This document shows, piece by piece, positions 727 through 58,174 of a DNA stretch of 64,000 nucleotides (positions are counted from its first letter, which is position 1; each line of letters opens with the position of its first letter). The notes beneath the pieces are model-generated. The model did not search any database and had not been told where the DNA came from. It was given only the letters and a program-made list of their open reading frames with translations. This DNA is from Fidelibacterota bacterium (lineage in GTDB: Bacteria > Fidelibacterota > UBA2242), in NCBI GenBank assembly GCA_049975265.1, contig JBNGDF010000008.1, forward strand, positions 1-64,000, read 5' to 3'. The position numbers were made by a program, and so were the translations under genes.

Positions 727-2015
727 TCATTCCTGTTTGATGATTTCCCAGTGACCGCCTTTGTCAGGGCCGATACGTTTTATTATATTTTTACTTTTAA
801 GACGGGCAAGGTGTTTTTCAACTGCTCTGGGACTGATACCGATTTTTTCAGCAATGTCTTTTGCTGAAATATCTGCTTGTTGCGATATGAGTTTTAAAAT
901 TTTCTCCGAACTTTTCTCCGAACCTTTCTCCGTACTTCTTCCGTACTTTTCCTGTATTTTCACCGAAGTTTTTTTCACAGTGTCGGTAAAAATGTCGGTG
1001 AAACTTATGATTGTTTTAAAATTGTCTTTCTCGATCAATTCAAAACGAGCGTTATTGCTATATATCGGCAGGTATTTTCGGATATTTCGAATCCCTGAGC
1101 CAAGTTCTTCGGCGCGTCCCAGTTGCTGGAAGAATTTTACGATAGCCGGATTTTTGGGATGCGGATTAAAGTTATCGGGATCAATCGGACCGTGTCCGAC
1201 CGGGTTATTGGCATTTTCTGTAATGACTGAATCGCGCTGGATGATTAGTCGTGCCGGAAAGGCATTGTTATATTCGCGGTGAATAAGGATATTTGCCACC
1301 ATTTCCTGAAAATCTTTTCCCGCAGATCAACCCGTATATCGCCTTCCATAAAAAACTTATCGGGAAGATGGGTGCGGATAAACAGCATAATTTCATCGTA
1401 GGCGTCCACCAGATTGGTGCGGATTTCACGGCGGTCATCGTAGTGATCCTGATCTTGGATCCTTAACAAAGCATCGGTTTTATAAGCGGGCACTATTTGC
1501 TGCAAAACATCGTCTTTAGCGAAAAGCAGAGCGGCAGCCAGCGTATATCCTTCTTTACCGGTTTCAAAATCACGCCGGTATAAGCCGGCGCTTTTCCTCT
1601 GATATAACCGGCTGATTGCTGCGCTGGATTTAAGTGTAAAATCACCATCTTCATTACAGTCAAAAATATATTTACCCGAACGGTGTACCTGGGAACTTTG
1701 CGGCACGCGGACATAAATAATTTTCTTTTCTTCGATGGTAAATTCCTCTGGAAAAACCATAAAGGGCGGGTCAAGTTTGTTCGGGTTATTGGACAGGTTG
1801 ACCAGGTCGGTTTTAATCTTATCGATTTTTTCAGGATCAATGCCAGTCACTTTTCCTGAGTTTTTTACACCAAGAAGTAAATCTCCGCCAATCCGGTTCA
1901 GGAACGCGCAAATGGTTTCGAAAATATTGTTAGGTAAGGTATTTCTGCATTCTTTGAATTCGATGTCAATACCTTCACCGGCTGATAAAATTTTCTTTAT
2001 TTTTTCTTCGGTCAT
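727..2015 (-). pseudogene. AlbA_2 (Schlafen-like) + HATPase_c_4 + winged-HTH putative regulator, frameshifted into two ORFs
   Basis: The N-part (ATG 2015) has GEGIDIEFKE...FETICAFLNRIGGDLLLGV. The C-part (727..1302) has VANILIHREY, NPHPKNPAI, AEELGSGI and a C-terminal HTH (IAEKIGISPRAVEKHLARLK...RIGPDKGGHW). One extra G at ~1305 would restore ...KIFR-E-MVANILIHREY. Confidence 0.8.
901..947. repeat. Imperfect 12-bp tandem repeat in the linker before the HTH
   Basis: tttctccgaact / tttctccgaacc / tttctccgtact plus a degenerate fourth copy; encodes KYGRSTEKGSEKSSEK on the minus strand. Confidence 0.7.
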
Positions 2016-17801: not shown

Positions 17802-17834
17802 AAAGCCCGCGGCCAATTATCCGTGGGCTTTTTT
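17802..17834. terminator. Intrinsic terminator between convergent genes, likely bidirectional
   Basis: aaagcccgcgg-ccaattat-ccgtgggctttttt. Confidence 0.75.
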
Positions 17835-19719
17835 ATTTCAGGAAAACCACCTTTCGGGTGATATCGGTGTCCGCCGCTCTCAGCCGGACCAGATAAATTC
17901 CGGAACTGTATGCTGCCGCTTCCCACCGGATTTGATATTTACCCGCCCGGTAATCTCCGGAGGCGAGAATTGCAATCTCCCGACCTGCCAGATTGTAGAT
18001 TGAAACAGTCAGCGCCGTCGCTTCGGGTATCGCAAATTGAACCGTCAAAACCCCATTGAATGGATTGGGATAATGCGTCAGGCTGAAGGCTGCCGGCAAT
18101 TTGGGTGTCTCTGAGAGCGCCGTGATGGGATTGACCGGGAGCAGCGCCGGTAGATTTTCTGCGTCGTCAAGCACCTGTTCATAAGAGTAGGGAATCGCCA
18201 GATCACAGGTCGGTTCCGTCGTGACATAACTGTCGCCGAAATCATTGCCGATCAATTGCACATATCCATTTTCAAGGCTGTAATCCATGAAGACCGCCTT
18301 ATTGACATTTTCGAAATAGTTTTTTTCCACCCGGACACAGGCACCCATCCGGGAGTTGATGGCGGTGTTGCAGTCTTTATAATAATTGTTGAAAATGTGT
18401 GCCTTACCAAAGCGGATACTGGGCAGACGGGAATCACAATGATAGAAAAAGTTATGATGATAGGTGACGCGAATGATGGAATCCTGGGGACTTTCGTCAT
18501 TGGAACAGATCAGGCTGGTTTTATAATGATCATGAAAGGAGCAGTTCGAGACGGTAATGAAGCTGGATTCGTTTTTGATATCCAGCAGACCGTCATAATA
18601 TTCGCTGCCGTGTTCGCGGTCGGAATAGAGTTCGCATTGATCAATTATTATATTTCGGGATTTACCGGTAATGACAATCGCATCGCCCGGCGTCACATGG
18701 GACACCCGGATATTTTGGATGATCACGTTGCGGACGCCGTTGATTTCGATCTCGATGCCCTGCAGGTGGGCGGTGCGGTTCAGTCCCAGCAGGGTTTTAT
18801 CGGAGCCGATTTTCAGGTCCTCCGTGCCGACAATCCGGCGATCCAGTGTTACCACCAATGGCTCGCTGCCGCCGAGATGGTTTTTTAATTCGCTGAAGGT
18901 GGTGGCGCTGACGGTATCGCCCAGTGCCCCGCCGATGACCAGATAGGGTGTTCCCCGGTCATCCTGAACGGTGGCGTAACCAATAAAACCGGAATCCATT
19001 GAGGTTCCGGCAGGCAGAAAGATCGCCGTGACCGCGACATTGTGATTCATTGCAAAGGTAAAGACTGAATCTGGGCTGGTCATATCCCCGGACCAGCTTT
19101 GGAAGAAATAGCCGGGATTGGAGTGGGCGCTCAGCGTCACCGCCGTACCCTCGTCATAGTAGTTCTGCACCGGAGCATAGGAGACCGTTCCAGCTTCGGC
19201 TAAATTTTGTCCCACTGTAAGAATATAAGAGGGAACACAGTCCGCCGGGGACAAGTCCGGACCGCTGAAGACAACATAGTCATAATTGGCGGTGCCGTCG
19301 GGATTATAGGCTTCGATCCGCACCTGATTTTTACCTTTGATCAATTCCACCTCCACGGAATCGCTGATCGTCCAGTTGGTCCATTCGCCGGTGTGGGGAA
19401 AGTTGACGGTATCGAGAGCGGTTTCATGGTTGATCAGTAGTCTGACCGGGCGGTCGCCGCTGCCGCCGCCGTTGGCGTAGCGCCATTTGATGGAGTAGAT
19501 TCCGGCTGAAGCGGCGTTGACGCTCCAGGTGATGCTCTTACCGACGCCCCGCTCGGTATCGGCATAGCCGTCTCCGGTATAACCGGTGACACTGGTCTCG
19601 ATTGAACCGTCAATGGCGCAGAAGCCCGGTTCGTTTTCCTGGATCATCAGCTCCTGCGCAGACGACAGACCAGTGAAAACAGTGTACATCACCGCCAGCA
19701 GATAATTTACTTTATGCAT
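17833..19719 (-). CDS. Secreted pectate lyase (PL1) with N-terminal CBM35-like module, InlB/Flg_new-like repeat and C-terminal sorting (FlgD-Ig/T9SS-like) domain
   Basis: GYTGDGYAD...WRYANG...TGEWTNW (CBM6/35-like); GYFFQSWSGD; NVIIQNI, YDGLLDIK, VTYHHNFF, SRLPSIRFG, HIFNNYY (PL1); YPNPFN...SSGIYLVRL C-terminus. Confidence 0.88.
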   Translation of the reverse strand: MHKVNYLLAVMYTVFTGLSSAQELMIQENEPGFCAIDGSIETSVTGYTGDGYADTERGVGKSITWSVNAASAGIYSIKWRYANGGGSGDRPVRLLINHETALDTVNFPHTGEWTNWTISDSVEVELIKGKNQVRIEAYNPDGTANYDYVVFSGPDLSPADCVPSYILTVGQNLAEAGTVSYAPVQNYYDEGTAVTLSAHSNPGYFFQSWSGDMTSPDSVFTFAMNHNVAVTAIFLPAGTSMDSGFIGYATVQDDRGTPYLVIGGALGDTVSATTFSELKNHLGGSEPLVVTLDRRIVGTEDLKIGSDKTLLGLNRTAHLQGIEIEINGVRNVIIQNIRVSHVTPGDAIVITGKSRNIIIDQCELYSDREHGSEYYDGLLDIKNESSFITVSNCSFHDHYKTSLICSNDESPQDSIIRVTYHHNFFYHCDSRLPSIRFGKAHIFNNYYKDCNTAINSRMGACVRVEKNYFENVNKAVFMDYSLENGYVQLIGNDFGDSYVTTEPTCDLAIPYSYEQVLDDAENLPALLPVNPITALSETPKLPAAFSLTHYPNPFNGVLTVQFAIPEATALTVSIYNLAGREIAILASGDYRAGKYQIRWEAAAYSSGIYLVRLRAADTDITRKVVFLK

Positions 19720-34096: not shown

Positions 34097-34894
34097 TTGA
34101 AAATCGTTGTACCCATCAAACAGGTTCCTGAGACCAGCAATGTCAAAATGGACCCCGCAACCGGTACCATGGTGCGTGAGGGAGTGGAATCGATCATTAA
34201 TCCGCTGGACCTGTATGCAATTGAAGAAGCTATTTTGTTAAAAGAGAAATATAACGCCGAGGTTATTGCCATTTCCATGGGACCGGCGAAAGCCGGCATG
34301 GCTCTGAAAGAGGCGATCGCCATGGGTTGTGATAACGGGATTTTGCTGAGTGACAAGGCATTCGCCGGTGCCGACACCTGGGCGACCTCCTATGTTCTCG
34401 CTCAGGCAATTAAAAAGATCGGTGATTTCGATCTGATTTTGTGCGGGGAGCGTGCCACTGACGGCGATACCGGACAGGTTGGTCCCGGCATTGCCGCCTG
34501 GCTGGATATTCCCTTCCACACCTACATCAGTGCGATCAAAGAGGTATACGCCGAATTTATGGTTATTGAGAGAATGGTGGAAACCGGATACGAAATCCTG
34601 GAGATTGATCGTCCCTGTTTACTGACGGTGGTCAAGGAGATTAACTATCCGCGTCTGCCCACACTGCGGGGCAAACAGAGAGCCCGGAAAATGCAGAGTG
34701 TAGTCTGGGGTCCCGCCGAGATTGAGGCAAGAGCGGAGTGTTTGGGACTGCAGGGTTCGCCGACCCGGGTTGTGAAAATATCCAAACCGCAGGTTACCCG
34801 GAATGGCAAAATCCTGCAACCGAAGGATGAGCAGCAGGTCGAGGAGGCGGTTGATCAGCTGCTGGCGTTTCTGGAAGAAAGAGAGATATTGTGA
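34097..34894 (+). CDS. etfB: Electron transfer flavoprotein beta subunit
   Basis: VPIKQVPET, INPLDLYAIEEA, FAGADTWATS, ATDGDTGQVGP. Confidence 0.95.
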   Translation: MKIVVPIKQVPETSNVKMDPATGTMVREGVESIINPLDLYAIEEAILLKEKYNAEVIAISMGPAKAGMALKEAIAMGCDNGILLSDKAFAGADTWATSYVLAQAIKKIGDFDLILCGERATDGDTGQVGPGIAAWLDIPFHTYISAIKEVYAEFMVIERMVETGYEILEIDRPCLLTVVKEINYPRLPTLRGKQRARKMQSVVWGPAEIEARAECLGLQGSPTRVVKISKPQVTRNGKILQPKDEQQVEEAVDQLLAFLEEREIL

Positions 34895-35931
34895 AAATAG
34901 CGGAGCTGGAAATGGCGTACGAGGGTGTTTGGGTTCTCGGAGAACAGGAGGAGGGGCGCATCAGACTGGTGTCTTACGAGCTGCTCAAACGGGGCCGTGA
35001 ACTTGCCGACAAACGACAGGTCGAATTGTGGGCGGTTGTTTTTGGTAAACGGATTGACAGACAGGATATAAAGGAGCTGTTCTATCGGGGTGCGGATAAG
35101 GTGCTTGTCGCCGAACACCCGGAATTGGAGCATTTTTTACCGGAACCATATACCAGCTGCCTGAACCACCTGATTCAAAAGTACAAGCCCGAAATTCTGA
35201 TCGCCAGCGCTACCACCACCGGTCGGACGGTGGCACCGGCGGTCGCCATCACCTGCAATACCGGTCTGACCGCCGATTGTACGGGACTGGATATTGAGCC
35301 AGAGACCGGCAATCTGATCCAGACCCGACCGGCTATCGGCGGGAATGTTCTGGCAACCATCAAGACACCCAATCACCGACCGCAGATGGCAACGGTCCGC
35401 CCGCATTCCAACAAACCGCTGGAGGCGGACCTCTCCCGCAACGGTGAGGTCATTTATGAAAAAATTGATAACGATCTGGTAAAAAGCCGGGTGCGACGGC
35501 GTGATTTCAGACCGATTGGGGAAGAAGGCAGCAATATTCAGGATGCTGAAATTGTGATCGCCGGCGGAAAGGGATTCAAGAAGGAAGAAAATTTTAATAT
35601 GGTATCCCAGCTGGCGGTTGCGTTCAAGGGGGCGATCGGAGCGACCCGTGACGCGGTGGATCTGGGGTGGGTAACCTACCCCCATCAGGTCGGTCTGAGT
35701 GGGAAAACGGTGAGTCCCAAGCTGTATATTGCCATCGGGATTTCCGGCTCCGTTCAACACCTGGCTGGGATAAAAACCGCCGAAAACATCATAGCGATCA
35801 ATAACGATCCCGATGCCCAGATATTTCAGGTGGCGGATTTCGGAATTGTCGCCGACCTGTTTGAGGTGCTGCCGGTTTTACAGGAGAGGATACATCAGCG
35901 AATTAAGAGCAAATGTAACATTCAAGACTGA
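34891..35931 (+). CDS. etfA: Electron transfer flavoprotein alpha subunit
   Basis: GLTADCT, RPQMATVRP, QVGLSGKTVSPKLYIAIGISGSVQH. Confidence 0.95.
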   Translation: MKIAELEMAYEGVWVLGEQEEGRIRLVSYELLKRGRELADKRQVELWAVVFGKRIDRQDIKELFYRGADKVLVAEHPELEHFLPEPYTSCLNHLIQKYKPEILIASATTTGRTVAPAVAITCNTGLTADCTGLDIEPETGNLIQTRPAIGGNVLATIKTPNHRPQMATVRPHSNKPLEADLSRNGEVIYEKIDNDLVKSRVRRRDFRPIGEEGSNIQDAEIVIAGGKGFKKEENFNMVSQLAVAFKGAIGATRDAVDLGWVTYPHQVGLSGKTVSPKLYIAIGISGSVQHLAGIKTAENIIAINNDPDAQIFQVADFGIVADLFEVLPVLQERIHQRIKSKCNIQD

Positions 35932-35943
35932 CGCGGAGGATTA

Positions 35944-37371
35944 GTGTCAACTTATCAATATAGTGTCGTTACGCCTGAAATCATCGCCGAATTAGAAAAG
36001 ATTCTCGGTAAGAAGTGGGTGATTTCCGGGGATAAGGATAAACTCGAACCCTATTCCCATGATGAGGTCGCCGAGAAGAGCTATGCCCACATGCCGGAGG
36101 TGGTCATTAAACCGCGCACCGCTGCCGAAATTGCCGCCGTGATGAAACTGGCAAACCGGGCAAAAATTCCGGTCACACCACGGGGTGCCGGCAGCGGACT
36201 GTCGGGAGGAGCGGTGCCGCTTTATGGTGGCATTCTTGTGTCCTTTGAGCGGATGAATGAAATTCTGGAGATTGATCAAGACAATCTGGTCATTGTGGTG
36301 GAACCGGGTGTAGTGACCAACGATATTAACACCAAACTGCAGGATGATGGACTCTGGTTTGCCGGGTATCCGATGAGTGTGGAGAGCTGCTTCATCGGTG
36401 GCAATGTCGCCGAGGATGCCGGTGGCGGCAAGGCGGTCAAATACGGTGTCACCAGCCGCTATATTCTGGGGCTGGAGGTGGTCACGCCGGAGGGAGAGAT
36501 TCTGCATCTGGGCGGAAAAAACGTCAAGGATGTTGTCGGGTACAACCTTTTGAAGCTAATGATCGGCTCCGAAGGGACTCTGGGCATTTTTACCAAAATC
36601 ATTATTAAACTGATGCCGCTGCCCACTGAAGCCGTGGACCTGCTGGTGCTCTTTAAGGATATCGACAGCGCGATTCGAATGGTGCCGATTATTATGACTT
36701 TCGGCAGGATCATCCCCACCGCCGTTGAATTTATGGACAAATTGTCTTTCCAGACCTCTTGCAAATACCTTAATGAGCACATGCCCTACGAACAGGCTGG
36801 CGCCATGCTCCTGATTGAAGTGGATGGCAATCATATCGAACAGCTGGAAAAGGAGTATGAAACAATCGGCGAACTCTGTCTGGAGCATGGTGCGCTGGAG
36901 GTTTATGTCGCTGATAATCACACTACCCGGGAACGGGTCTGGAAAATCCGCCGCAATATCGCCGAAGCCTTCATGGTCTATTCACCCGTGCAGAGCCTTG
37001 AAGATATCGTTGTTCCGGTTGGAAATATTGCTAAAATCCTACCGGAAATTGAAAACATCGGCGAGAAATATGATGTACTAATTCCCTGCTATGGTCATGC
37101 CGGAGATGGCAATCTGCACGCAACTCCGGTGAAAAAACCGGAAATGACTATCGAAAAATGGAACCGCGTTTTACCGCAACTGCTGCTGGAAATCTATCAG
37201 CGGACCAGAGCCTATGGCGGAAAAATCAGCGGCGAGCATGGTATCGGGCATAAGCGCAAAAAGTACCTCGGTGAATCCCTGGAAGCGGTTGCCATTGATC
37301 TGATGAAAAGAATTAAAAAGTCCTTTGATCCAAACTACATTCTGAACCCGGGGAAAATTTTCGACCTGTAA
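35944..37371 (+). CDS. FAD-linked 2-hydroxyacid dehydrogenase (GlcD/LctD-like lactate/glycolate dehydrogenase)
   Basis: PRGAGSGLSGG, IGGNVAEDAGG, GSEGTLG, GHAGDGNLH, SGEHGIG. Confidence 0.88.
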   Translation: MSTYQYSVVTPEIIAELEKILGKKWVISGDKDKLEPYSHDEVAEKSYAHMPEVVIKPRTAAEIAAVMKLANRAKIPVTPRGAGSGLSGGAVPLYGGILVSFERMNEILEIDQDNLVIVVEPGVVTNDINTKLQDDGLWFAGYPMSVESCFIGGNVAEDAGGGKAVKYGVTSRYILGLEVVTPEGEILHLGGKNVKDVVGYNLLKLMIGSEGTLGIFTKIIIKLMPLPTEAVDLLVLFKDIDSAIRMVPIIMTFGRIIPTAVEFMDKLSFQTSCKYLNEHMPYEQAGAMLLIEVDGNHIEQLEKEYETIGELCLEHGALEVYVADNHTTRERVWKIRRNIAEAFMVYSPVQSLEDIVVPVGNIAKILPEIENIGEKYDVLIPCYGHAGDGNLHATPVKKPEMTIEKWNRVLPQLLLEIYQRTRAYGGKISGEHGIGHKRKKYLGESLEAVAIDLMKRIKKSFDPNYILNPGKIFDL

Positions 37372-37430: not shown

Positions 37431-38384
37431 CTAATTGACCCGGTTGACGGGCGTACCGTCAAGAAATGCCCGGACATTCTGTACCACGGTTTTCATCAAG
37501 CGGGCTCGCGCTGCTCGGGTCGCCCAGGCGATATGGGGCGTGATGTAGCAGTTTTTTGCCGACAGCAGCGGATTGTCCGGTGCCGGCGGTTCGGTGGAGA
37601 GAACATCCAGCCCGGCGCCGGCGATATTTTCGCTGTTCAGTGCCTCAGCCAGGGCGGCTTCATCAATGAGCTGACCGCGGCTGGTGTTGATTAAAAAAGC
37701 CGTTGATTTCATTAACCTGAGCTGTTTTTTGCTGATCAATCCTTCCGTTTCCGGTGTCAGTGGACAGTGCAGTGTGATAATATCGCTTTCCCTGAACAGT
37801 CTATCGAGAGTGACGTTCCGATAGTCGGAATCAATCTGGTCCGGTGGATTGATATCGTAATAAATAATGTTCATACCGAAGGCTTGCCCCAGAGTGGCGA
37901 CCTGCCGCCCAATGCGACCAAAGCCGACAATGCCAAGCGTCTGGCTTTGCAATTCCACCAATGGAAATTTCCAATAGCAGAAATCCGGAGATTGAGACCA
38001 TTCTCCGTTTTTTACGGATAGTGAATGTCCTCCCACATGCTGACAGAGATTGAGAATATGGGCGAAAGCCATCTGAGCCACGGACAGCGTACTGTAAGCC
38101 GGCACATTTGTAACGACGATGTTTCGATCTGCGGCGGTCTGAATGTCAACTACGTTATAGCCGGTGGAACAGAGACCGATATATTTTAATTTCGGCAGCC
38201 GGTCAATTTCCGATTTGCCGATGACGACTTTATTGATAATGAGAATCTCGGCGGCATACGCTCGTGTGATAACTTCTGCCGGACTGGTGCGATCATACAT
38301 GACGCAATCCCCCAGTTTTTCCAGTTCAGCCCAGCTCAGATCGCCGGGATTGAGGGTATGACCATCGAGTACGACGATATGCAT
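37431..38384 (-). CDS. NAD-dependent D-2-hydroxyacid dehydrogenase (glycerate dehydrogenase/hydroxypyruvate reductase-like)
   Basis: LDGHTLNPGDLSW, GIVGFGRIG, LHCPLT, INTSRG, DVLSTEPP, TPHIAW. Confidence 0.9.
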   Translation of the reverse strand: MHIVVLDGHTLNPGDLSWAELEKLGDCVMYDRTSPAEVITRAYAAEILIINKVVIGKSEIDRLPKLKYIGLCSTGYNVVDIQTAADRNIVVTNVPAYSTLSVAQMAFAHILNLCQHVGGHSLSVKNGEWSQSPDFCYWKFPLVELQSQTLGIVGFGRIGRQVATLGQAFGMNIIYYDINPPDQIDSDYRNVTLDRLFRESDIITLHCPLTPETEGLISKKQLRLMKSTAFLINTSRGQLIDEAALAEALNSENIAGAGLDVLSTEPPAPDNPLLSAKNCYITPHIAWATRAARARLMKTVVQNVRAFLDGTPVNRVN

Positions 38385-38532: not shown

Positions 38533-39162
38533 TTACGCCGATGCGCCGATAATATTTTCGACGATTTTGACAGCCTCGTTGGCATCGCGACCGTAGGCGT
38601 GGGCGCCGATGGAATCGGCGTATTTCTGAGTTACCGGGGCACCGCCGATAACGACCTTGACTTCGGGAGTATCTTTAAAATGTTTGACCACCTCTTCCAT
38701 ATAGGTCATGGTGGTGGTCAGCAGAGCACTGCACATGACGATTTTAACGCCGGCATTGACGGCTTCGGTATATTTATCAATGCTGCAATTGGTGCCCAGG
38801 TCGAGTACTTCGTAGCCGGCACCTTTCAGCATAATCGCCACCAGGTTTTTGCCGATGTCGTGCAGATCGCCCTTAACGGTACCCACGGCGATTTTTCCCC
38901 GGGGCTTGTGGTTGGATTGGGCTAACACCGGTTCGATAATGCTCAAACCAGCCTGCATTGCCCGGGCGGCGATCAGCATTTCGGGAACATAGACCTCGTT
39001 GCGGGAAAAGCGTTCTCCGATCTCGCGCATCGCCGGGATCATCGATTCGTCCAGCAGTTCGGTGACGTTCTGTTCCTGGTCGATGGCACTCTGCATGATG
39101 GTCTGAACGGTATTGCGATCGCCTTTTACAATTGCATTAAAAAGTTCTTCGTTGCGTGCCAT
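38533..39162 (-). CDS. Corrinoid (B12-binding) methyltransferase protein, MtaC/MtbC-like
   Basis: Cap domain (EVYVPEML) plus GDLHDIGKNLV (DxHxxG), SALLTTT, IGGAP. Confidence 0.93.
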   Translation of the reverse strand: MARNEELFNAIVKGDRNTVQTIMQSAIDQEQNVTELLDESMIPAMREIGERFSRNEVYVPEMLIAARAMQAGLSIIEPVLAQSNHKPRGKIAVGTVKGDLHDIGKNLVAIMLKGAGYEVLDLGTNCSIDKYTEAVNAGVKIVMCSALLTTTMTYMEEVVKHFKDTPEVKVVIGGAPVTQKYADSIGAHAYGRDANEAVKIVENIIGASA

Positions 39163-39212
39163 AGGTTCTCCTGTTTTGTTGCTAAATTTAATGAAGTCTG
39201 GTCATTATCAAA

Positions 39213-40250
39213 CTATTTTCCGCCGGAAATACGATAATTCCGCCCCGCCTGCATAAAGGCTTCGATGTTTTTTTCCGGTGTGTTTTTCGGCAAATCGCAG
39301 CCGGTGCTGAGGATAAAATTTGGATACGAATCGACGGATTTCAGCAGCTCACTTACCTCCGCTGCCACTTCCACCGGTGAGCCGGTCAGGATCTTACCCA
39401 CGGGATTGAGATTGCCCATTACCAGCACATCTTTGGGTACCTTTGGCATAATTTTGGGTAAATCCATGCCGGAATCAGGTGAATCGAGACTCAGACCATT
39501 GACGCCGCTTTTCACCATGTTTCCGATCAGATGCATGGTGTTGCCGCAAACATGGTAAACCGAAACGACCCCTTTCCAGCGGCACAGATCAGCCAATTCT
39601 TTAACATAATTTCCGGAAAATTCCTGGAAATGGTCCGGACCCAGCATCGAGGCGCTGGGCTCCAGTACGCAGATGACCTCGGCGCCGTGATCCATGAGAA
39701 GCCGGGCGTAATCGTTGATGATTTTCATGCAATATTCGGTAAGGACATGCAGCCCTTTGGGTTCCAGGATAATGGACTGGGCGGCTTCCTGAGCACCGAG
39801 AATCAGAGCCGCCAGGGTATAGGGACCGGTGACATAGGCGCCTTTGAAAATGGTATCGTCACTGCTGTTCTGAAGAAGTTCTACGACTTTGGCATAGCCC
39901 AAAGCGCGGGTGTCGGCGGCGATGTCAATTTTCGGCAGCATGTCCACATGATCGAGATGGAAGGCGACATGCGGCACCGTAGCGGTATCGTCAATCGGGA
40001 AAAGGGTGTAGCGCCCGATGGCATTGGCTTCCACAGACAGGTCCATGAGTGGAAATATCATGTCAGGTCCGAAGCGATGGATCAGAGCCGCCAATGCCGA
40101 CTGATGGACCCGGTAATTTTGCTGACCCAGCTTGATCGTACTGTTGATCATTTTCAAACCGGGCATGCCCACCAGGGGAGCCACAAGTCGCTGTCGGTTT
40201 TCATAGGCACGCTGAACCCGTGACATCAGTTTTGAATTCTGCATGTTCAT
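39213..40250 (-). CDS. Uroporphyrinogen decarboxylase-fold methyltransferase (MtaA/CmuA-like)
   Basis: DLSVEA, GPYTLA, Zn-type YHVCG (HxC) and LSTGCD, MGNLNP. Confidence 0.82.
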   Translation of the reverse strand: MNMQNSKLMSRVQRAYENRQRLVAPLVGMPGLKMINSTIKLGQQNYRVHQSALAALIHRFGPDMIFPLMDLSVEANAIGRYTLFPIDDTATVPHVAFHLDHVDMLPKIDIAADTRALGYAKVVELLQNSSDDTIFKGAYVTGPYTLAALILGAQEAAQSIILEPKGLHVLTEYCMKIINDYARLLMDHGAEVICVLEPSASMLGPDHFQEFSGNYVKELADLCRWKGVVSVYHVCGNTMHLIGNMVKSGVNGLSLDSPDSGMDLPKIMPKVPKDVLVMGNLNPVGKILTGSPVEVAAEVSELLKSVDSYPNFILSTGCDLPKNTPEKNIEAFMQAGRNYRISGGK

Positions 40251-40381
40251 CTTCCTGGTCCTTTGTCCCTGCTTCTGTTTTTAATGATCAAATAAAATCC
40301 TTTATATTTGCATATAAGATAAAGTCTGTTATCGTTAATAAATAGTTTTATTTTGTCAAAATATTGCTGTATATTATCATC

Positions 40382-41311
40382 ATGAATGCCATTGCGCTGA
40401 CCCAGAGTGGATTTATCTCTTTCCCGGCGGGCGCCAATATTACCTTTCATCGGCTTGCCTGGGAGTCGGGACGACGATCCTTCAGCATGAATGCCGGTCC
40501 CGATGTCCGCTATCATACGCTGGTCAGCGATGCGACAGCCCTGCACACCCACGAATTCGCCGAATTTTTTCTGATCATCAGCGGGAAGATCAGACACATT
40601 ATCAACGGTGAACATCAACCGCTGGATGCGGGCACTTTGGTGTTCATTCGACCGACGGACATTCACGGTTTTGAGCAGCGTGACGAAGCCGCTTGTGAAC
40701 TGGTCAATGTGGCGTTTAAACTGGAGTTCCTGCGCGACCTGAGCAATTATCTGGGCAATGATTTTTTCCTACGCCGCTATACGGGACCGGTGACGTCGCC
40801 GGTTTTTAAACTGTCTCTTGCCGAAACGGATACGCTGGCTACCCAATTGATTCGGATGAATCTGCTGCAAAGTACCGCCCAGGATGTTGCCCGTTTAAAA
40901 ATCAAGGTGCTGATCGCCGAGCTTTTCACCCGTTTTTTTCTGGATAATGAGTCCTCCGGCACCGGTCGTGATCACCCGGAGTGGTTCGAGCAGCTGATTG
41001 TGGAGATGGGAAAACAGGAAAATCTGTACGGCGGTCTGGTACGGATGAAGGCATTGGCGCCGTGCACTCAGGAACATTTGTGCAAGTGTTTTCGGAAATA
41101 CCTGGATAAAACCCCCACCCAGTTTATTAACGAGTTGCGGATCAAGCGAGCCGCCAAGCAGATTGTCGAGACCGAGGAAAAGATCCTTTCCATTGCCCTG
41201 GATCTGGGATTTGTCAGTCTCAGTCGTTTCCACAATCTGTTTAAAAAATATTACGGCATCCCGCCGGCAAGGTACCGTCTGATGAGTCGCCGGAATGATA
41301 TCCCGATTTGA
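40382..41311 (+). CDS. AraC family regulator with cupin sensor domain
   Basis: LHTHEFAEFF...IRPTDIHGF; C-terminal EHLCKCFRK..., LGFVSLSRFHNLFKK. Confidence 0.9.
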   Translation: MNAIALTQSGFISFPAGANITFHRLAWESGRRSFSMNAGPDVRYHTLVSDATALHTHEFAEFFLIISGKIRHIINGEHQPLDAGTLVFIRPTDIHGFEQRDEAACELVNVAFKLEFLRDLSNYLGNDFFLRRYTGPVTSPVFKLSLAETDTLATQLIRMNLLQSTAQDVARLKIKVLIAELFTRFFLDNESSGTGRDHPEWFEQLIVEMGKQENLYGGLVRMKALAPCTQEHLCKCFRKYLDKTPTQFINELRIKRAAKQIVETEEKILSIALDLGFVSLSRFHNLFKKYYGIPPARYRLMSRRNDIPI

Positions 41312-41356: not shown

Positions 41357-41378
41357 ATTTGTAAGATGTATGACAAAT
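41357..41378 (+). promoter_or_regulatory. Putative GntR-family operator
   Basis: Imperfect palindrome ATTTGT-aagatgtatg-ACAAAT just upstream of the gntR gene (GT...AC core). Confidence 0.5.
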
Positions 41379-41395: not shown

Positions 41396-42142
41396 ATGAC
41401 AGCCCTCTTCCGGAAAATTGGCAACTCGCAAACCTTAAGTCAGGAAATCGTTGCGAAGATCGAGGCGGTTATCCGGCAAAAAAAGGTTCTCCCCGCTGAA
41501 AAATTGCCGACCGAGAAGGAGCTGTGCCACATGTTCGGGGTCAGCCGGACCGCCTTGCGGGAAGCGCTGCAGATGCTCAGTGCCCGGGGGCTGATCAGCA
41601 TTCGAAAGGGTAGCGGGATTTATGTCAACGACTATTCCTCAATGCATGTGATTGAGCCGATGAACCTCTTTCTTGAATTGAAGCTGGACCGTGATTATAT
41701 CCTGTATGTCATGGAGGTTCGCAAGATGTTCGAGCCGACGATCGCCCGGCTGGCGGCGCTTAACAGGAACGCCGATGATCTGCGCAAACTTGCCCTGAAT
41801 CTGCAGAAGCTGCAGCAGTCTCCGCCGGAGGATTATATCAAACAGGGACAGATTGATCGGGATTTTCATCTGATCATTGCCAATGCCTGCCGGAACCCGA
41901 TCATACCGCTCATGGTGACACCGATTTTTCAACTGATGCCGAAAATCCGTTCGCTGGTGTATGCCAATGTGACATCTGCCCAGGATGAAGCGATCGATTA
42001 TCATCAGAGAATTGCATTGAAAATCCGTGACCGGGACCCGGAAGGCGCCTATCAGGCGATGGTGGCGCATCTGCAACGCGCCGAAAGTCATTCGAAAGAG
42101 ATATTATCCGCAGCTGATTTAAAATTACAGGAGCTATCGTGA
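41396..42142 (+). CDS. GntR/FadR family regulator (UxuR/ExuR-like context)
   Basis: LPTEKEL...FGVSRTALREAL, RKGSGIYV, DRDFH FCD domain. Confidence 0.92.
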   Translation: MTALFRKIGNSQTLSQEIVAKIEAVIRQKKVLPAEKLPTEKELCHMFGVSRTALREALQMLSARGLISIRKGSGIYVNDYSSMHVIEPMNLFLELKLDRDYILYVMEVRKMFEPTIARLAALNRNADDLRKLALNLQKLQQSPPEDYIKQGQIDRDFHLIIANACRNPIIPLMVTPIFQLMPKIRSLVYANVTSAQDEAIDYHQRIALKIRDRDPEGAYQAMVAHLQRAESHSKEILSAADLKLQELS

Positions 42143-42789
42143 AACGGGCAATCATTCAGGAAACATTGGAACGGTCGGGTATCATGGCAGTGATTCGACT
42201 GAGGAATGCCGATAAGCTGACCGAGATAATCGACGCCCTGATCAACGGAGGAATTCGGGCGTTGGAAATCACCATGACGACACCGAATGCGGTTGAGATT
42301 ATCCGTGACACCAGTCAAAATCTCTCTGCGGATTTTATTATAGGGGCGGGAACGGTTCTCAACGCGGAAGCGGCGGAGGCGGTCATCCAGGCGGGTGCTC
42401 AGTTTGTGGTCAGCCCGGTATTCAAACCGGAAATCATCTCAGTGGCGCATAAGCATGACAAAGTCGCCATTCCCGGTGCCTTCAGTGCGACGGAAATCCT
42501 GGTTGCCTGGGAGAGCGGCGCCGATATGGTAAAGGTTTTCCCGGCGACCGTTCTAGGACCGCGCTATTTCAAGGATATACACGGACCTCTGCCGCAGGTA
42601 AAATTGACACCCACCGGCGGCGTATCGCTGAGCAATGCCGAAGAGTTTATCCGTTGCGGGGCGGTCTGTCTGGGGGTGGGCAGTGCCTTGCTGGATAAGG
42701 ATCTCATCTGGGGTCAGAATTGGGCGGCTTTGACGGAAAAAGCCCGTCAGTTCAGGGCGGCGGTAGAGAAAGGAAGAGCGCTAAAATGA
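42139..42789 (+). CDS. eda: KDPG/KHG aldolase
   Basis: LEITMTTP, IGAGTVL, FVVSP, VKVFPA, PTGGV. Confidence 0.95.
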   Translation: MKRAIIQETLERSGIMAVIRLRNADKLTEIIDALINGGIRALEITMTTPNAVEIIRDTSQNLSADFIIGAGTVLNAEAAEAVIQAGAQFVVSPVFKPEIISVAHKHDKVAIPGAFSATEILVAWESGADMVKVFPATVLGPRYFKDIHGPLPQVKLTPTGGVSLSNAEEFIRCGAVCLGVGSALLDKDLIWGQNWAALTEKARQFRAAVEKGRALK

Positions 42790-42814
42790 ATTTATTGAAA
42801 TGGAGATGGTCCCA

Positions 42815-43840
42815 ATGATTCCCAGGATTGTAACCTTTGGAGAGATCATGCTGCGCCTGGCGCCTGATGATTATGAGCGGATCATCCAGACGAATCGGTT
42901 TCAGGCAACCTACGGCGGAGGTGAAGCCAATGTAGCGGTATCGCTGGCACAGCTGGGCGACGAGTGTTGGTTTGTGACCCGTCTGCCGGAGAATGCTCTC
43001 GGCGATGCGGCAATCCAGACGCTGTCTGGCTATGGTGTCCGGGTTGACCACATTATACGCGGCGGTCAGCGGATCGGTATCTACTTTCTGGAGCAGGGTG
43101 CCTCGCTGCGTCCGTCCAGGGTGATCTACGACCGCGCCGGATCGGCGATAACGGAAATCAAGACCGGGAGCCTGGAATGGTCAGCGATTTTTAAGGGGAA
43201 GGACTGGTTTCATATTACCGGAATCACGCCGGCGATTTCGAAGTCGGCAGCCGCCGTCAGTCTGGAGGCAGTCAGGACGGCGAAGCATGCCGGTCTGAGA
43301 GTCAGTTGTGACCTGAATTATCGCAGGAAGCTCTGGACCCGCGTTGAGGCGCAGGCAGTTATGGCGGAATTGGTTCGGTATACCGATCTGATCATTGCCA
43401 ATGAAGAGGATGCCGCTGACGTATTTGGAATCCGCGCCGGTGCCGGTGATGTAAAAGCGGGGAAGTTGGATAGTGCCCAGTATCGGGATGTTGCAGAACA
43501 GCTGGCGGCTTTGTCGGGTGCCGGAAAAGTCGCCATAACTCTGCGGGAAAGTCTCTCGGCGTCGGATAACAACTGGTCGGCGCTGCTGTTTGATGGTGAA
43601 AATTTTTATGAGAGTCGCAAATATGCGATTCACATAGTCGATCGGGTTGGCGGCGGCGATTCTTTTGGTGCCGGTCTGATTCACGGTCTGCTCAGGGGTT
43701 GGGAGATGCAGACCGCGCTGGAGTTTGCCGTTGCGGCATCCGCGCTGAAACAGACCATTCCCGGAGATATGAATCTGGTCAAAGAAGATGAAGTTATGGC
43801 TGTCGTGAAGGGTGATGTTTCGGGGCGGGTTCAGCGCTGA
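42815..43840 (+). CDS. kdgK: 2-dehydro-3-deoxygluconokinase (PfkB family)
   Basis: VTFGEIMLRL, GGGEANVAVSL, YDRAGSA, DLNYRRKLW, DRVGGGDSFGAG; start 42800-42815. Confidence 0.92.
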   Translation: MIPRIVTFGEIMLRLAPDDYERIIQTNRFQATYGGGEANVAVSLAQLGDECWFVTRLPENALGDAAIQTLSGYGVRVDHIIRGGQRIGIYFLEQGASLRPSRVIYDRAGSAITEIKTGSLEWSAIFKGKDWFHITGITPAISKSAAAVSLEAVRTAKHAGLRVSCDLNYRRKLWTRVEAQAVMAELVRYTDLIIANEEDAADVFGIRAGAGDVKAGKLDSAQYRDVAEQLAALSGAGKVAITLRESLSASDNNWSALLFDGENFYESRKYAIHIVDRVGGGDSFGAGLIHGLLRGWEMQTALEFAVAASALKQTIPGDMNLVKEDEVMAVVKGDVSGRVQR

Positions 43841-43903
43841 AATATCGCATCCGGCAGCTGTCGCCGGCTGAATGATTTTGGAAAACATGAAAAAGGAGTT
43901 GTT

Positions 43904-45151
43904 ATGAAATTGTCCAGGTATTCGATGGGTGTTGGGGACCGCTTTGGTCGGGAAGGGGTTGCCCAGTTAGCCGCGATGTTCAAAGCCAGTGAACAGGGTA
44001 TTCCGATAACACCTGTTTGGAATAAATCGTTTCGCGAACATCAGATCATTGGTAGTACACCGGCGGACACCCGTCGGGCGGCGGATGAAGCGGTGCGCTC
44101 TGCGGGATGGCAGGCGGCTTACTTTGTGGATGGCGACCATATCGATCTGAAAACGGTGGACGATTTTATGCAATCCAGCGATTTTTTTACCATGGATGTC
44201 GCCGACGAAATCGGCAAGCCGGTGGAAGATGCAAAATTGCGGGAGTATATGCAGTTTTGTGAGCGGTTTCACCGGTCGTTTGAAATTCCCGGGATTGCGG
44301 AGAAGCTCGACGTCAGCCCCGAGATGGTTCGTCAGATTGCGCAACAGTATCTGGCGGGTATTCTGGAGGCAGAAAAAATCTACCGGCATATCGCAGAACG
44401 GGTAAAGAAGCCCTTTGTGCTGGAGTTGTCCATCGATGAAACAGAGCAGCCGCAGCGTCCGGTGGAGCTTTTCTTTATTCTGGCGGGTGCCGCCTGGTGC
44501 CGTCTGCCGCTGGATACGATCGCGCCGAAGTTCAGCGGTCGTTTCAATAAGGGGGTCGATTATGTGGGTGATGCCGCCCGGTTTGCCCGGGAATTTGAGG
44601 AGGACATTCTGGTGGTCAAATTTGCCGTACAGGAATTTGGATTGCCGGCATCGTTGAAACTGAGCGTCCATTCCGGCAGCGATAAATTTACCCTTTATCC
44701 GATTATTCGGAAAATTTTGCATAAACAGAACGCCGGAGTTCACCTGAAGACGGCGGGTACCACCTGGCTCGAAGAGCTGATTGGTATCGCTGCCGCTGGT
44801 GGCGCCGGTCTGGATCTGGCGAAATCGATCTATTCCGATGCCTATGACCGCCAGGCGGAGCTGGTAAAACCCTATGCTCCGGTGCTGGATATTCACCCCA
44901 AACGTCTGCCCTCTCCGGCGGATGTCCGGACCTGGAGCAGTGCTGAATTCGTTGGTGCATTGCGGCATGTTCAGACGGAAAAACGGTATAATCCCGACTT
45001 TCGCCAGCTCCTGCACGTAGCATATAAAATTGCCGCCGAGCGGTGCACAGAATTCGACCGGGCGCTCCAGCATTATGTCGATTTTATCGCTCCCAACGTG
45101 ACCGAAAACCTCTTTGAACGCCATATCAAGCCGCTGTTTTTAGAGGAATAA
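43904..45151 (+). CDS. uxaE: Tagaturonate/fructuronate epimerase family protein
   Basis: SMGVGDRFG, DGDH, ELSIDETE, GRFNKGVDY, KLSVHSGSDKF, HLKTAGTTWLE. Confidence 0.88.
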   Translation: MKLSRYSMGVGDRFGREGVAQLAAMFKASEQGIPITPVWNKSFREHQIIGSTPADTRRAADEAVRSAGWQAAYFVDGDHIDLKTVDDFMQSSDFFTMDVADEIGKPVEDAKLREYMQFCERFHRSFEIPGIAEKLDVSPEMVRQIAQQYLAGILEAEKIYRHIAERVKKPFVLELSIDETEQPQRPVELFFILAGAAWCRLPLDTIAPKFSGRFNKGVDYVGDAARFAREFEEDILVVKFAVQEFGLPASLKLSVHSGSDKFTLYPIIRKILHKQNAGVHLKTAGTTWLEELIGIAAAGGAGLDLAKSIYSDAYDRQAELVKPYAPVLDIHPKRLPSPADVRTWSSAEFVGALRHVQTEKRYNPDFRQLLHVAYKIAAERCTEFDRALQHYVDFIAPNVTENLFERHIKPLFLEE

Positions 45152-55996: not shown

Positions 55997-58174
55997 ATGA
56001 AGGCTTTTGAAAAGAGTCGCAGATTAAAAGCGGGCGGAACGGCATTTTGGGTTGTAAGGCTGCTTCTCGTTGGAATGGTGTTCGCCCAGACGCAGCCGGA
56101 GCTGGAAACAGCCACCGTCCAGATGGGACGGGTCTGGGTCGGTGTCAAAGCCAATGGCGATAAAGGCAATTTCGAATTCCGCTACCCCTTTTTCCCCAAC
56201 GATTACGACGTACTCGGCGTGCGGGGTCAGCAACAGGATTTATGGGGCGGTGCAGGCTTCCGGCTGGTGACCACCAACTGGTGGGACCCGGTCTATCCCG
56301 ATTCGCTGCACAAAGTGGCTATTTTCGGACCGACGAACGAGTATATGCCTCAGGGAAAAGTCGTTGAAGGCGGCGAGCTGACCAATTATGCCCGCTTTGG
56401 GTATCCGGAGCAGTATGTTGATTTCGAACCGCTGTCTCTGCCGGAATTCAGTCCGACCGCTCCCGATATGCTGGGCGATTACAGTTACGATCAGGTGGTA
56501 GAGGTGACCTCGGAAAATATTCTCGGTGTGCAGCTCCGCCGCAAGCTGATGGCTTGGAGCCAGAGCCTGAATGATGATTACGTCATTCTCGATGTGGAAC
56601 TGACCAACGTCAGTGGCGATACGCTGCCCGATTTTTATATTAATGTGGAATCCAACGGGGAAAACACCTATCATTCCACTGGCTCCAATCCGACCCTGAG
56701 AGGAGAAGAGGCGATCCAGACATCCTATACCTGGCAGCACTATTACGGCGGTCGGGTCGGCGACAGCCTGCGGGTCTTTTATGAATACAGCGCTGACGAT
56801 CCCAACATTGTCGGCGATGATATGGGCAAACCGGCGATTAGCCAGAACGGGCGCCTGGTTTTTCCGAAATTTGTCTGGTATTCGATCCTGCACGCATCAG
56901 AACAGCCCTATACGAAACCGGAGGATGACGAAGATGATTTTCTGCAGCCAAAGGTGACCTACATCGGCAAAAGCAACCTGATTCCCTACAATGATGAGAG
57001 CGATGAATTCGGCAGTAAAAATTTCTGGGCGATTCGCGGCGCCTATTCAGAATTCTTACCCATGAGCGGTAATACCTGGCCGGGTACTTATCACGGGGTC
57101 AATAGCGACGAGTACAATTCGCCGGATTTTTCGGCTCTGGGCGCCGTTTCCAAAGATAATAATAATTCCAAGATGTATTCCAGCTTCGGTCCCTACACCT
57201 TTCTGCCGGGTCAGAAAATCCGGCTGGTGTTTGCCAGTGGCTATTCCGGTCTCAGTCTCGAAAAGGGCAAGGAGATCGGACGCAAGTGGCTGAACGGCAC
57301 TCTGGAAGATCCACCCAATCTACCGGATGATCATACCGGGTACCTCCCAGCCAATTTTGTTTTTCCCGCTGGCGCCACGGAAATGGACCGGCGCAAAGAC
57401 CGCTGGATCAGTACCGGAATTGATTCGGTCATGGCGAGCGCTTCCCGGGCGAAGTGGAATTTTGACCATGGCTATAAAATTCCCCTTTCACCGCCGCCGC
57501 CCAGCCGGATAGATATTACCGGTCTCGGAACGGGCGTAGAAATAAAGTGGGTAGATATAGAGGCGGAAGCCATGCCGAATTTTGCCGGCTATCGGATTTT
57601 GCGGCGGATATCCAACCTGGATTCGGTCTTTTATGATGTTGTCTACAATTCTGATTCCGATGATAAGGCGGCGGAACATCTTTTTGTTGACACTACGGTC
57701 GTTGTGGGCGCGCAGTATTACTACTATGTACAGGCAAAAGCCCGCGTTGCACCGGATGATCTGACCGCCCATGCTTCGACGCGCGGAAAGATCATGTACA
57801 GTAACCGGGTGCTGCATCCCAATCTGACGCCGGTGTTTCCGCCCTATTTCTCCCAGGACGACCTCAGCAAAATCCGGATTGTCCCGAATCCCTACAATAT
57901 CAACGATCCGCTCTTACGTGATGTCGGATGGACCGATCGCCGCGGCTTGATGTTTCTGAATCTGCCTCCGGAGGTGACTATCAAAATCTTCACTGAAAAC
58001 GGCGACTGGGTGCAGACGCTGGAACATTACAGCCCGCCCACTGTGCTCGCCGGCAATAAATTCTGGGATATGATCACCCGCAACCAGCAGGTGATTCACA
58101 GCGGGGTCTATATTGCGGTTTTTGAGACGCCGGACGGGCAGACATCCATGCAAAAATTTCTGGTAATCCGTTGA
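55997..58174 (+). CDS. Secreted protein of unknown function with FN3-like domain and IVPNPY-type C-terminal sorting domain
   Basis: Signal peptide without lipobox Cys; PPPPS...GYRILR...YYYYVQA; IRIVPNPY...FLNLP...IKIFT..G...WDMITRNQQVIHSGVY...KFLVIR. Confidence 0.75.
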   Translation: MKAFEKSRRLKAGGTAFWVVRLLLVGMVFAQTQPELETATVQMGRVWVGVKANGDKGNFEFRYPFFPNDYDVLGVRGQQQDLWGGAGFRLVTTNWWDPVYPDSLHKVAIFGPTNEYMPQGKVVEGGELTNYARFGYPEQYVDFEPLSLPEFSPTAPDMLGDYSYDQVVEVTSENILGVQLRRKLMAWSQSLNDDYVILDVELTNVSGDTLPDFYINVESNGENTYHSTGSNPTLRGEEAIQTSYTWQHYYGGRVGDSLRVFYEYSADDPNIVGDDMGKPAISQNGRLVFPKFVWYSILHASEQPYTKPEDDEDDFLQPKVTYIGKSNLIPYNDESDEFGSKNFWAIRGAYSEFLPMSGNTWPGTYHGVNSDEYNSPDFSALGAVSKDNNNSKMYSSFGPYTFLPGQKIRLVFASGYSGLSLEKGKEIGRKWLNGTLEDPPNLPDDHTGYLPANFVFPAGATEMDRRKDRWISTGIDSVMASASRAKWNFDHGYKIPLSPPPPSRIDITGLGTGVEIKWVDIEAEAMPNFAGYRILRRISNLDSVFYDVVYNSDSDDKAAEHLFVDTTVVVGAQYYYYVQAKARVAPDDLTAHASTRGKIMYSNRVLHPNLTPVFPPYFSQDDLSKIRIVPNPYNINDPLLRDVGWTDRRGLMFLNLPPEVTIKIFTENGDWVQTLEHYSPPTVLAGNKFWDMITRNQQVIHSGVYIAVFETPDGQTSMQKFLVIR

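Follow-up and report, generated by a model that had tools for sequence, protein, structure and literature searches.

A stand-alone corrinoid protein and an MtaA-like methyltransferase with their own AraC-family regulator: candidate parts of a split sugar O-demethylase in a Fidelibacterota bacterium

The cassette and its products

The DNA analyzed here, in the following called the window, comprises positions 1-64,000 of contig C8 of a Fidelibacterota bacterium whose genome (G000) has a size of 2.86 Mb and is 95% complete. It contains a cassette of three genes, in which a corrinoid carrier protein and a UroD-fold methyltransferase are transcribed divergently from an AraC-family regulator (Table 1). 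A preliminary description had read the first two as a methyl-transfer pair attached to a pectin locus, and the three open reading frames (ORFs), their positions and the motifs it named in them were all recovered. Neither MtaB nor the activator RACo nor a stand-alone tetrahydrofolate (THF) methyltransferase was found in the window, as had been noted there as well.

Table 1. Features of the cassette and its surroundings (positions in the window).
Feature	Position	Strand	Basis
Stand-alone corrinoid (B12) carrier protein, 209 aa, cap and Rossmann domain	38533..39162	-	domain matches and motif
UroD/MtaA-fold methyltransferase, 345 aa, predicted Zn site H233/C235/C318; putative terminal (MT2-type) enzyme	39213..40250	-	profile, alignment, model
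Two 13-bp direct repeats, consensus TGATAAwATAvAG, 21 bp apart; putative AraC operator	40346..40379	-	conserved in 11/11 cassettes
AraC-family regulator travelling with the corrinoid gene	40382..41311 (longest ORF from 40364)	+	cupin and helix-turn-helix domains; orthologues in the same cassette
Near-palindrome upstream of gntR; putative operator of the uronate operon, marks the cassette edge	41357..41378		core conserved in locus L037
gntR-eda-kdgK-uxaE hexuronate operon; neighbour, probably not part of the cassette	41396..45151	+	beside the cassette in 2/13 genomes
D-2-hydroxyacid dehydrogenase; neighbour, probably not part of the cassette	37431..38384	-	G002 and G005 have it near the corrinoid gene as well

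Both domains of the corrinoid protein, the B12-binding one (PF02310) and the cap (PF02607), match above cut-off. Its motif D99-L-H101-D-I-G104 (DLHDIG, 38851-38868) is unchanged at D99, H101 and G104 in 20 aligned corrinoid proteins, and with 128 bits against a cut-off of 420 the protein falls outside the MtaC type. Seven B12-binding matches were obtained in the genome, among which the window protein is the only stand-alone one of the methyltransferase type found; by length and sequence, the other six are read as MetH, a mutase-sized subunit, a sensor-like protein and longer enzymes. In our order-wide survey, for which all 42 genomes including G000 were searched, corrinoid proteins of the window type (at least 61% identity) occur in 20 genomes.

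The methyltransferase matches the URO-D family (PF01208) with 167.5 bits. Its predicted Zn ligands H233 (codon 39552-39554), C235 (39546-39548) and C318 (39297-39299) line up with the LHICG and APGCG motifs of Methanosarcina mazei MtaA (PDB 4ay7), and all 37 aligned relatives have the same three residues. The predicted model (pLDDT 88) is a UroD-type TIM barrel, which superimposes on MtaA with a TM score of 0.82, a Z score of 35.1 and a root mean square deviation (rmsd) of 2.5 over 320 aligned residues, at a structure-based identity of 18%. MetE-type folds come next (Z 24.0, rmsd 3.1, 282 aligned), while UroD structures nearly tie with MtaA (Z 34.5). For neither the window enzyme nor a second UroD-fold protein, encoded on contig C45 of the same genome, did fold searches separate MtaA from UroD (Z within 1), and no structure of a first-step O-demethylase was among the matches. 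All five NCBIfam matches place the MtaA type over HemE, at scores that miss the curated cut-offs (TIGR01463, 116 vs. 235; NF004889, 115 vs. 244; NF040654, 103 vs. 400; NF041608, 91 vs. 600). Fold and H-x-C...C site are thereby shared with the methylcobamide:coenzyme M methyltransferases MtaA, MtbA and MtsA, from which the window enzyme differs in its low structural identity, in scores under all curated cut-offs and in a bacterial host in which neither MtaB nor MttB was found.

Where members of this enzyme family are named (1310 proteins in one search), the label is uroporphyrinogen decarboxylase, a function to which the Pfam match and the tied fold would also fit. However, the RQAGR motif and the C-terminal His, the functional marks of HemE, are absent from the window enzyme and present in four HemE controls, and the HemE family scores only 62.6 bits against a cut-off of 302.95. 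Furthermore, a search for HemB in this genome (95% complete) gave no match, so a haem role is not expected for any of its three UroD-fold genes. We consequently regard a true decarboxylase as next to impossible, and the earlier assignment to corrinoid-dependent methyl transfer is supported.

For the regulator, whose orthologues in the same cassette are 58-83% identical, translation probably starts at ATG 40382, because the codons upstream of it coincide with a conserved DNA repeat. We infer the two repeats at this start to be the AraC operator. They form the only strong site of this kind in the genome (32.6 vs. 16.3 for the runner-up at 21-bp spacing); a second strong tandem site was not found genome-wide, nor was a regulatory tie to the pectin genes or to the genes on contigs C45, C4 and C30 that are discussed below. 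It had been suggested that the AraC gene leads into the gntR operon. The two are indeed adjacent, but the 85-bp gap between them holds a near-palindrome of its own, which is kept in the closest relative. Promoter and terminator scans remained at chance level (7 vs. 5.8; 4 vs. 5.7), and no Rfam family, cobalamin riboswitches included, scored above threshold in the window or in four further loci. GC and GC3 of the cassette equal those of its neighbours and give no sign of recent transfer.

A slot with alternative enzymes and the sister clade

Thirteen genomes possess an orthologous AraC gene with a window-type corrinoid protein, in one of them split over two contigs. The slot between the two genes holds the window-type methyltransferase in four genomes (G000, G002, G004, G017) and a UroD-CxxC-thioredoxin fusion together with CobW in five others (G001, G013, G024, G275, G276), with a sixth case cut by a contig end. 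It is empty in G011, G016 and G022, where one of the two enzyme types is encoded elsewhere, and in G035 it is occupied by two other UroD-fold genes, with an enzyme of 35% identity located downstream. Window type (13 genomes) and thioredoxin fusion (14 genomes) share none of the 42 genomes, where 4.3 would be expected, and both occur within each of the genera g1 and g6. Since the slot holds either enzyme and never both in these genomes, it fits an exchangeable final step. In a tree of 76 UroD-fold sequences (87 picked from 196, from which 11 duplicates or fragments were dropped), enzymes with a complete Cys site form one group and those with an altered site another; within cassettes of different glycan loci, a complete-site enzyme that stays constant is accompanied by a partner that varies.

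The thioredoxin fusion (L266:7285-9602, and loci L260, L263, L265, L256 and L062) carries an F-x-C...C site besides its CxxC thioredoxin-like domain; in the mapped loci a CobW-type GTPase follows it, and it takes the place of the window enzyme in 14 of the 42 genomes. Upstream of the corrinoid gene of G005 (L255:7250-8900), half a cobW gene and transposase-like remains suggest the loss of such a cassette. A third, THF-type enzyme with MetF occurs in six genomes, none of them among the 13 with the window type, which is weak evidence (1.9 expected). In two of its loci (L289 and L290, from G010 and G014) a pterin-binding methyltransferase, a MetF C-terminal-like protein, MetF and a corrinoid protein are clustered; both genomes have the GH115-linked enzyme described in the next section and neither of the two thiol-type enzymes.

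In the tree, the window enzyme has a sister clade (support 0.976) with 32% identity and the same Zn motif. Of 81 genomes of one Bacteroidales family, 10 matched, and in 9 of these the member of the clade belongs to a GH31-UroD-SSS-corrinoid-methyltransferase-activation cassette, with GH141 adjacent in four and GH78 in three. No homocysteine methyltransferase (HMT) gene was found in these GH31 cassettes by marker search. A 687-aa protein (P0277) is a tandem duplication of two sister-clade enzymes with a full HxC...C site in each. This was the one result of a search for longer relatives, which returned no corrinoid fusion and no other informative fusion and counts as weak evidence; plasmid searches delivered distant relatives only. 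In the window, methyltransferase and corrinoid genes are two separate ORFs 50 bp apart, which sets them apart from the CmuA-type fusion.

Gene names much like those of the sister-clade cassette are carried by BT0339-43 of Bacteroides thetaiotaomicron, and BT0338 is a GH141 (PMC3243724, Table S1; PMC8264420; PMC8941943). According to the same Table S1, two conditions raise the expression of BT0338-43 by factors of 34 to 361, in a pattern like that of the rhamnogalacturonan II (RG-II) locus BT0977-1031, where the column headings of the table cannot be mapped with certainty. In a B. thetaiotaomicron fitness study (PMC8121099 and its preprint), BT0339-43 were not found to be discussed, and BT0338 appears in one unrelated supplement row. 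We found no published function for this 'Mta' locus, which comprises GH141, GH31, a corrinoid protein, a symporter and two methyltransferase-like genes; its GH31, BT0339, is presumably the protein of PDB 5f7c. Likened by gene names, it shares with the window a corrinoid protein and an MtbA-like enzyme in a glycan context, and it differs in having a first enzyme and a transporter of its own and a corrinoid protein of another type (42% identity). Locus L187, from a Dysgonomonas judging by its protein names, has the same gene set plus a MetH-type activation domain, and its enzyme is a sister-clade member, 32% identical to that of the window and with the same Zn motif. RG-II carries 2-O-methylxylose and 2-O-methylfucose. 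Of the RG-II partners of the B. thetaiotaomicron locus none was found in G000, where queries of five RG-II types (GH141, BT0339-type GH31, BT0342-type, GH78, BT1020-type) gave no match.

These data also bear on the order of the two methyl transfers. The window enzyme might itself be the substrate-specific first methyltransferase for an O-methyl sugar, with the methyl group leaving via a stand-alone HMT or MetH. With two O-methyl sugars in RG-II, two paralogues could serve one each, and window-enzyme orthologues do occur in xylan or sugar-acid loci (12 of the best 80 of 422 genome loci). The UroD superfamily includes the first-step O-demethylases MtvB, OdmB, VdmB and MtoB (PMC13222342). However, across loci for different glycans it is the partners that vary and the window type that stays the same; the thioredoxin fusion can stand in its place, and in most cases it is not located near any of the glycosidase markers tested. 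A first-step role is thus unlikely in our view.

The second part of the preliminary description, the attachment of the pair to the pectin locus, is not supported. Of the 13 genomes, only G000 and its nearest relative have the uronate operon beside the cassette, an adjacency kept between them across 21 kb at 82% DNA identity. In six other genomes a SASA esterase and a GH13 phosphorylase lie downstream instead, and GH38, GH78, GH31, GH141 and sugar transporters flank further cassettes. G005, which belongs to the same genus, retains hpr-CBS-nqrF on one side of the corrinoid gene and has other genes on the far side. PL1 occurs in 11 of the 42 genomes, and its overlap with close methyltransferase orthologues (3 of 9, 2.4 expected) and corrinoid orthologues (6 of 20, 5.2 expected) shows no co-occurrence. 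Strict pectin markers, for which only catalytic domains of PL1 were used, were found at 2 of the best 80 genome loci, compared to 12 with xylan or sugar-acid markers, 12 with a corrinoid gene and 22 with any one-carbon partner. The xylan or sugar-acid set includes GH9 and a sugar-acid dehydratase picked from the same loci, GH115 itself being present in 5 of the 80. For the best 80 of 541 metagenome loci, of which 55 are shorter than 10 kb, the corresponding numbers are 0, 8, 0 and 6. With full-length queries PL1 had appeared near 11 of the 80 loci, an artefact of a shared C-terminal sorting tail that disappeared with catalytic domains only. A role of the pair in this pectin locus, as a salvage route for methyl groups of methanol or methyl-galacturonate, could draw on the kept adjacency, on the CE8 methylesterase in the locus and on the sister clade in pectin (RG-II-type) loci. 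The local cluster with PL1, PL10, CE8, GH28 and GH105 is, however, of the homogalacturonan type, and methanol as donor finds no counterpart in the genome: MtaB (PF12176) was not found in it at 95% completeness, with Methanosarcina acetivorans as matching control. We consider this reading very improbable; the position beside the pectin genes is probably incidental.

Partner genes and the donor side

An activator, which had been expected elsewhere in the genome, is encoded on contig C30: RACo (1528-3078) comprises 2Fe-2S, middle and C-terminal domains. It is divergent from an ATP:corrinoid adenosyltransferase gene (L132, C30:1528-3659). MetH, MetF, Fhs and two stand-alone HMT are present as well. 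MttB, AcsB and MetE were not found in the genome, and from the lack of AcsB it follows that the methyl group is not used for acetogenesis. A stand-alone pterin-dependent second methyltransferase was not found either, since the PF00809 matches are MetH and one FolP-like gene, and the type of G010 and G014 is likewise not found.

Besides that of the window, the genome contains two UroD-fold genes, on contigs C45 and C4. The C45 enzyme (C45:4070-5101) is encoded in the order GH115-GH43-UroD-xylA-xylB-galM, an operon accompanied by a divergent LacI gene and a TonB receptor (L130, C45:285-9863). GH115 and GH67 release (4-O-methyl)glucuronate, and GH67 lies together with GH10 on contig C14. The C45 enzyme and GH115 each occur in 14 of the 42 genomes, 13 of which they have in common (4.7 expected); in 10 of its 14 genomes the enzyme lies within 7 kb of GH115, and in an eleventh it adjoins GH67. 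Its orthologues occur with corrinoid, HMT or MetH-activation genes in 6 of the best 80 methyltransferase loci. One Ignavibacteria-type locus (L098) unites GH115, GH43, a corrinoid protein, HMT, an activation domain, C45-type and window-type enzymes, uxuA, SDR, xylB and xylA. The link is looser among 12 Bacteroidales loci of the C45 enzyme, which have GH115 in three and one-carbon partners in three. The C45-type family is large, with 7577 matches among 8000 scored candidates; it shows invariant C76, D205, D206 and H238-N-D240 and tracks GH115.

When the window corrinoid protein was docked on the C45 enzyme in silico, three runs gave an ipSAE of 0.75, compared to 0.00 for the best of three controls. 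At least 92% of the contacts agree between runs, the partner pLDDT is at least 90, and the interface includes residues 101-103. The mark used is reached by 116 of 157 solved pairs and 2 of 215 mismatched pairs, a calibration that is roughly applicable here. The prediction favours a corrinoid-dependent role for the C45 family, although the score may reflect likeness to solved corrinoid complexes. The C45 and C4 enzymes are thus candidates for the ether-cleaving first methyltransferase, judged by the UroD fold in both and by the predicted docking for C45. The C4 gene adjoins an MmuM-like HMT gene (L131, C4:4351-6324), and in G009, G012 and G018 a corrinoid gene, which G000 lacks at this place, lies beside a C4-type gene. 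Taken together, the measurable carbohydrate link is glucuronoxylan in G000 and the Ignavibacteria, whereas that of the sister clade is RG-II-type loci in Bacteroidales.

From gene anatomy, motifs and distributions, together with the predicted folds and docking, we propose, at a probability of about 0.45 and hence slightly below even odds, that the pair represents the carrier and the terminal methyltransferase of a split corrinoid-dependent O-demethylase for O-methyl sugars, here mainly 4-O-methylglucuronate, with a small thiol as methyl acceptor. GH115 and GH67 would free 4-O-methylglucuronate from glucuronoxylan; the C45 enzyme would move its methyl group to the cob(I)amide of the window corrinoid protein and leave glucuronate for the UxaC/UxaE route, and the C4 enzyme may feed a second substrate. 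The window methyltransferase would then pass the methyl group via its Zn site to a small thiol, thereby regenerating Co(I), and RACo would reactivate Co(II). AraC would control this cassette only, through the two repeats at 21-bp spacing. Of the two routes offered by the preliminary description, demethylation of O-methyl sugars remains the best reading, with relatives of the enzymes in glycan loci, and the pectin link is weak.

Several observations weigh against this proposal. RACo was found in only 6 of the 13 genomes with the window enzyme, 8 of which are without the C45 enzyme, so that the window enzyme itself has no tie to xylan; its close orthologues co-occur with GH115 in 4 of 9 cases (3.0 expected). 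Part of the profile of the C45 enzyme reflects glycan generalists, as it co-occurs with PL1 as well (9 of 11). The putative AraC operator was not detected ahead of either the C45 or the C4 gene. The exclusivity of the slot is not universal, since L062 from Bacteroidales has both the window-type enzyme and the thioredoxin fusion, and in G027 (99% complete) the C45 enzyme is present, while searches for the three candidate terminal enzymes all came back empty. No one-carbon partner lies in the fetched flank of 58 of the 80 genome and 74 of the 80 metagenome loci, 23 and 55 of which, respectively, are under 10 kb. In addition, the genomes of the survey are related to one another, so p-values overstate, and sulfide as acceptor is arrived at by elimination and analogy.

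Many loci without a sugar marker might also mean that the carbohydrate neighbours are background and that the cassette serves non-sugar donors of anoxic sediments, such as methylated thiols, methoxylated aromatics or halomethanes, like MtsA, CmuA and Mto. Most orthologue loci are of this kind, the host family is rich in glycan loci anyway, and the MtaA/CmuA family has bifunctional enzymes for methylated thiols and chloromethane (PMC8630106). However, in G000 one UroD-fold partner alone has an informative context, and that is the glucuronoxylan locus, the cassettes of relatives have the carbohydrate-active and transporter genes named above at their flanks, and MttB, MtaB and AcsB were not found. 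Such donors appear quite unlikely to us.

Methyl acceptor, known systems and further genes of the window

As acceptor in sugar O-demethylation we favour, by inference only, sulfide or methanethiol, most likely as a disposal route, because routes to homocysteine are already covered three times in the genome and an HMT gene lies beside the enzyme in 8 of the 80 loci. The same split demethylase could instead methylate homocysteine, for methionine and S-adenosylmethionine salvage. MetE-type folds follow next in the structural comparison (Z 24.0 vs. 35.1 for MtaA), the Bacteroidales GH31 cassettes are without HMT by marker search, and no MetE was found in G000. The core-MetE of Dehalococcoides and methanogens, as described in PMC7005905, is a barrel of about 340 aa that takes the methyl group from corrinoids, and its H-x-C...C motif binds Zn and activates the thiol of homocysteine. 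The window enzyme resembles it in size, site and presumed reaction, yet lies structurally farther from it than from MtaA. The MetE C-terminal family PF01717 matches neither the window enzyme nor any other protein of the genome, which places the enzyme outside core-MetE. With MetH and two stand-alone HMT in G000, a further homocysteine enzyme would duplicate what is there, the HMT genes that adjoin the window-type enzyme at 8 of the 80 loci would be redundant, and the methyl yield of sugar catabolism would presumably exceed the need for methionine. Homocysteine is an improbable acceptor on these grounds.

The closest functional models for sugar O-demethylation are Mtv of Moorella, Odm and Vdm of Acetobacterium dehalogenans and Mto of Methermicoccus. 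Each consists of a first methyltransferase of the UroD superfamily, a stand-alone corrinoid protein, a second methyltransferase and an ATP-dependent activator (PMC8630106 and PMC13222342). Stand-alone corrinoid protein and RACo are present in G000 as well, though its parts are spread over four contigs. Furthermore, those systems cleave aryl ethers, whereas the putative donors here are sugar methyl ethers, and their second enzyme is pterin-binding, whereas the terminal enzyme here is MtaA-like, so that on this point the set of G000 falls outside them.

Most xylans of hardwoods and grasses bear 4-O-methylglucuronate, and 2-O-methyl sugars occur in RG-II; to our knowledge, it is not explained how anaerobes remove such ether-linked methyl groups enzymatically. 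Strict multi-term searches, with poor coverage of subscription journals, found no paper on corrinoid-dependent sugar demethylation. New here are the link to a substrate and the swap in the slot. The comparison names enzyme-substrate pairs, the C45 type with 4-O-methylglucuronate and the BT0342 type with 2-O-methylxylose, and would assign a terminal role to a large uncharacterised family that is otherwise labelled uroporphyrinogen decarboxylase. If true, a B12-dependent step would be added to fibre fermentation and xylan side chains would be fermented more fully. One might speculate further that a modular B12 pathway exists in anaerobic glycan degraders of many phyla. Substrate-specific UroD-fold enzymes in glycan loci (4-O-methylglucuronate with GH115/GH67; 2-O-methylxylose with GH141/GH31) would load a shared corrinoid carrier, and an exchangeable MtaA-like enzyme would release methanethiol or dimethylsulfide, which would link the decay of hemicellulose and pectin to volatile sulfur and methylotrophic methanogenesis. 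In this breadth the idea is tentative and rather doubtful.

Several further genes surround the cassette. Downstream of AraC, the products are a GntR/FCD regulator, 2-keto-3-deoxy-6-phosphogluconate aldolase, a PfkB kinase, UxaE, a hybrid two-component system and a PL1/TonB/GH105/GH43 cluster; the pectin cluster runs past the window end with PL1, CE8, PL10, GH28, KduI and UxaC. Within it, a 725-aa protein after the TonB receptor (55997-58174) has no Pfam or NCBIfam match and takes the SusD-like position of the glycan loci of the phylum. A secreted protein of 1213 aa (62143-64000, continuing to C8:65784) contains internal repeats, each about 215 aa long and nearly identical, besides a sorting tail, with a sub-threshold 3-keto-disaccharide hydrolase match only. 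Another PL1 pectate lyase, with a CBM and a sorting tail, lies 30 kb from the main pectin cluster (17833-19719). On the other side of the cassette, downstream of the nqr operon, an etfB-etfA-GlcD-like FAD oxidoreductase operon (34097-37371) resembles electron-confurcating lactate dehydrogenase. Finally, uxaC is followed by SDR, 6-phosphogluconate dehydrogenase-like, LarA-like and PfkB-like genes (C8:81474-86886; labels by eye except SDR), which, with uxuA not found in the genome, possibly constitute a mannonate-to-gluconate route.

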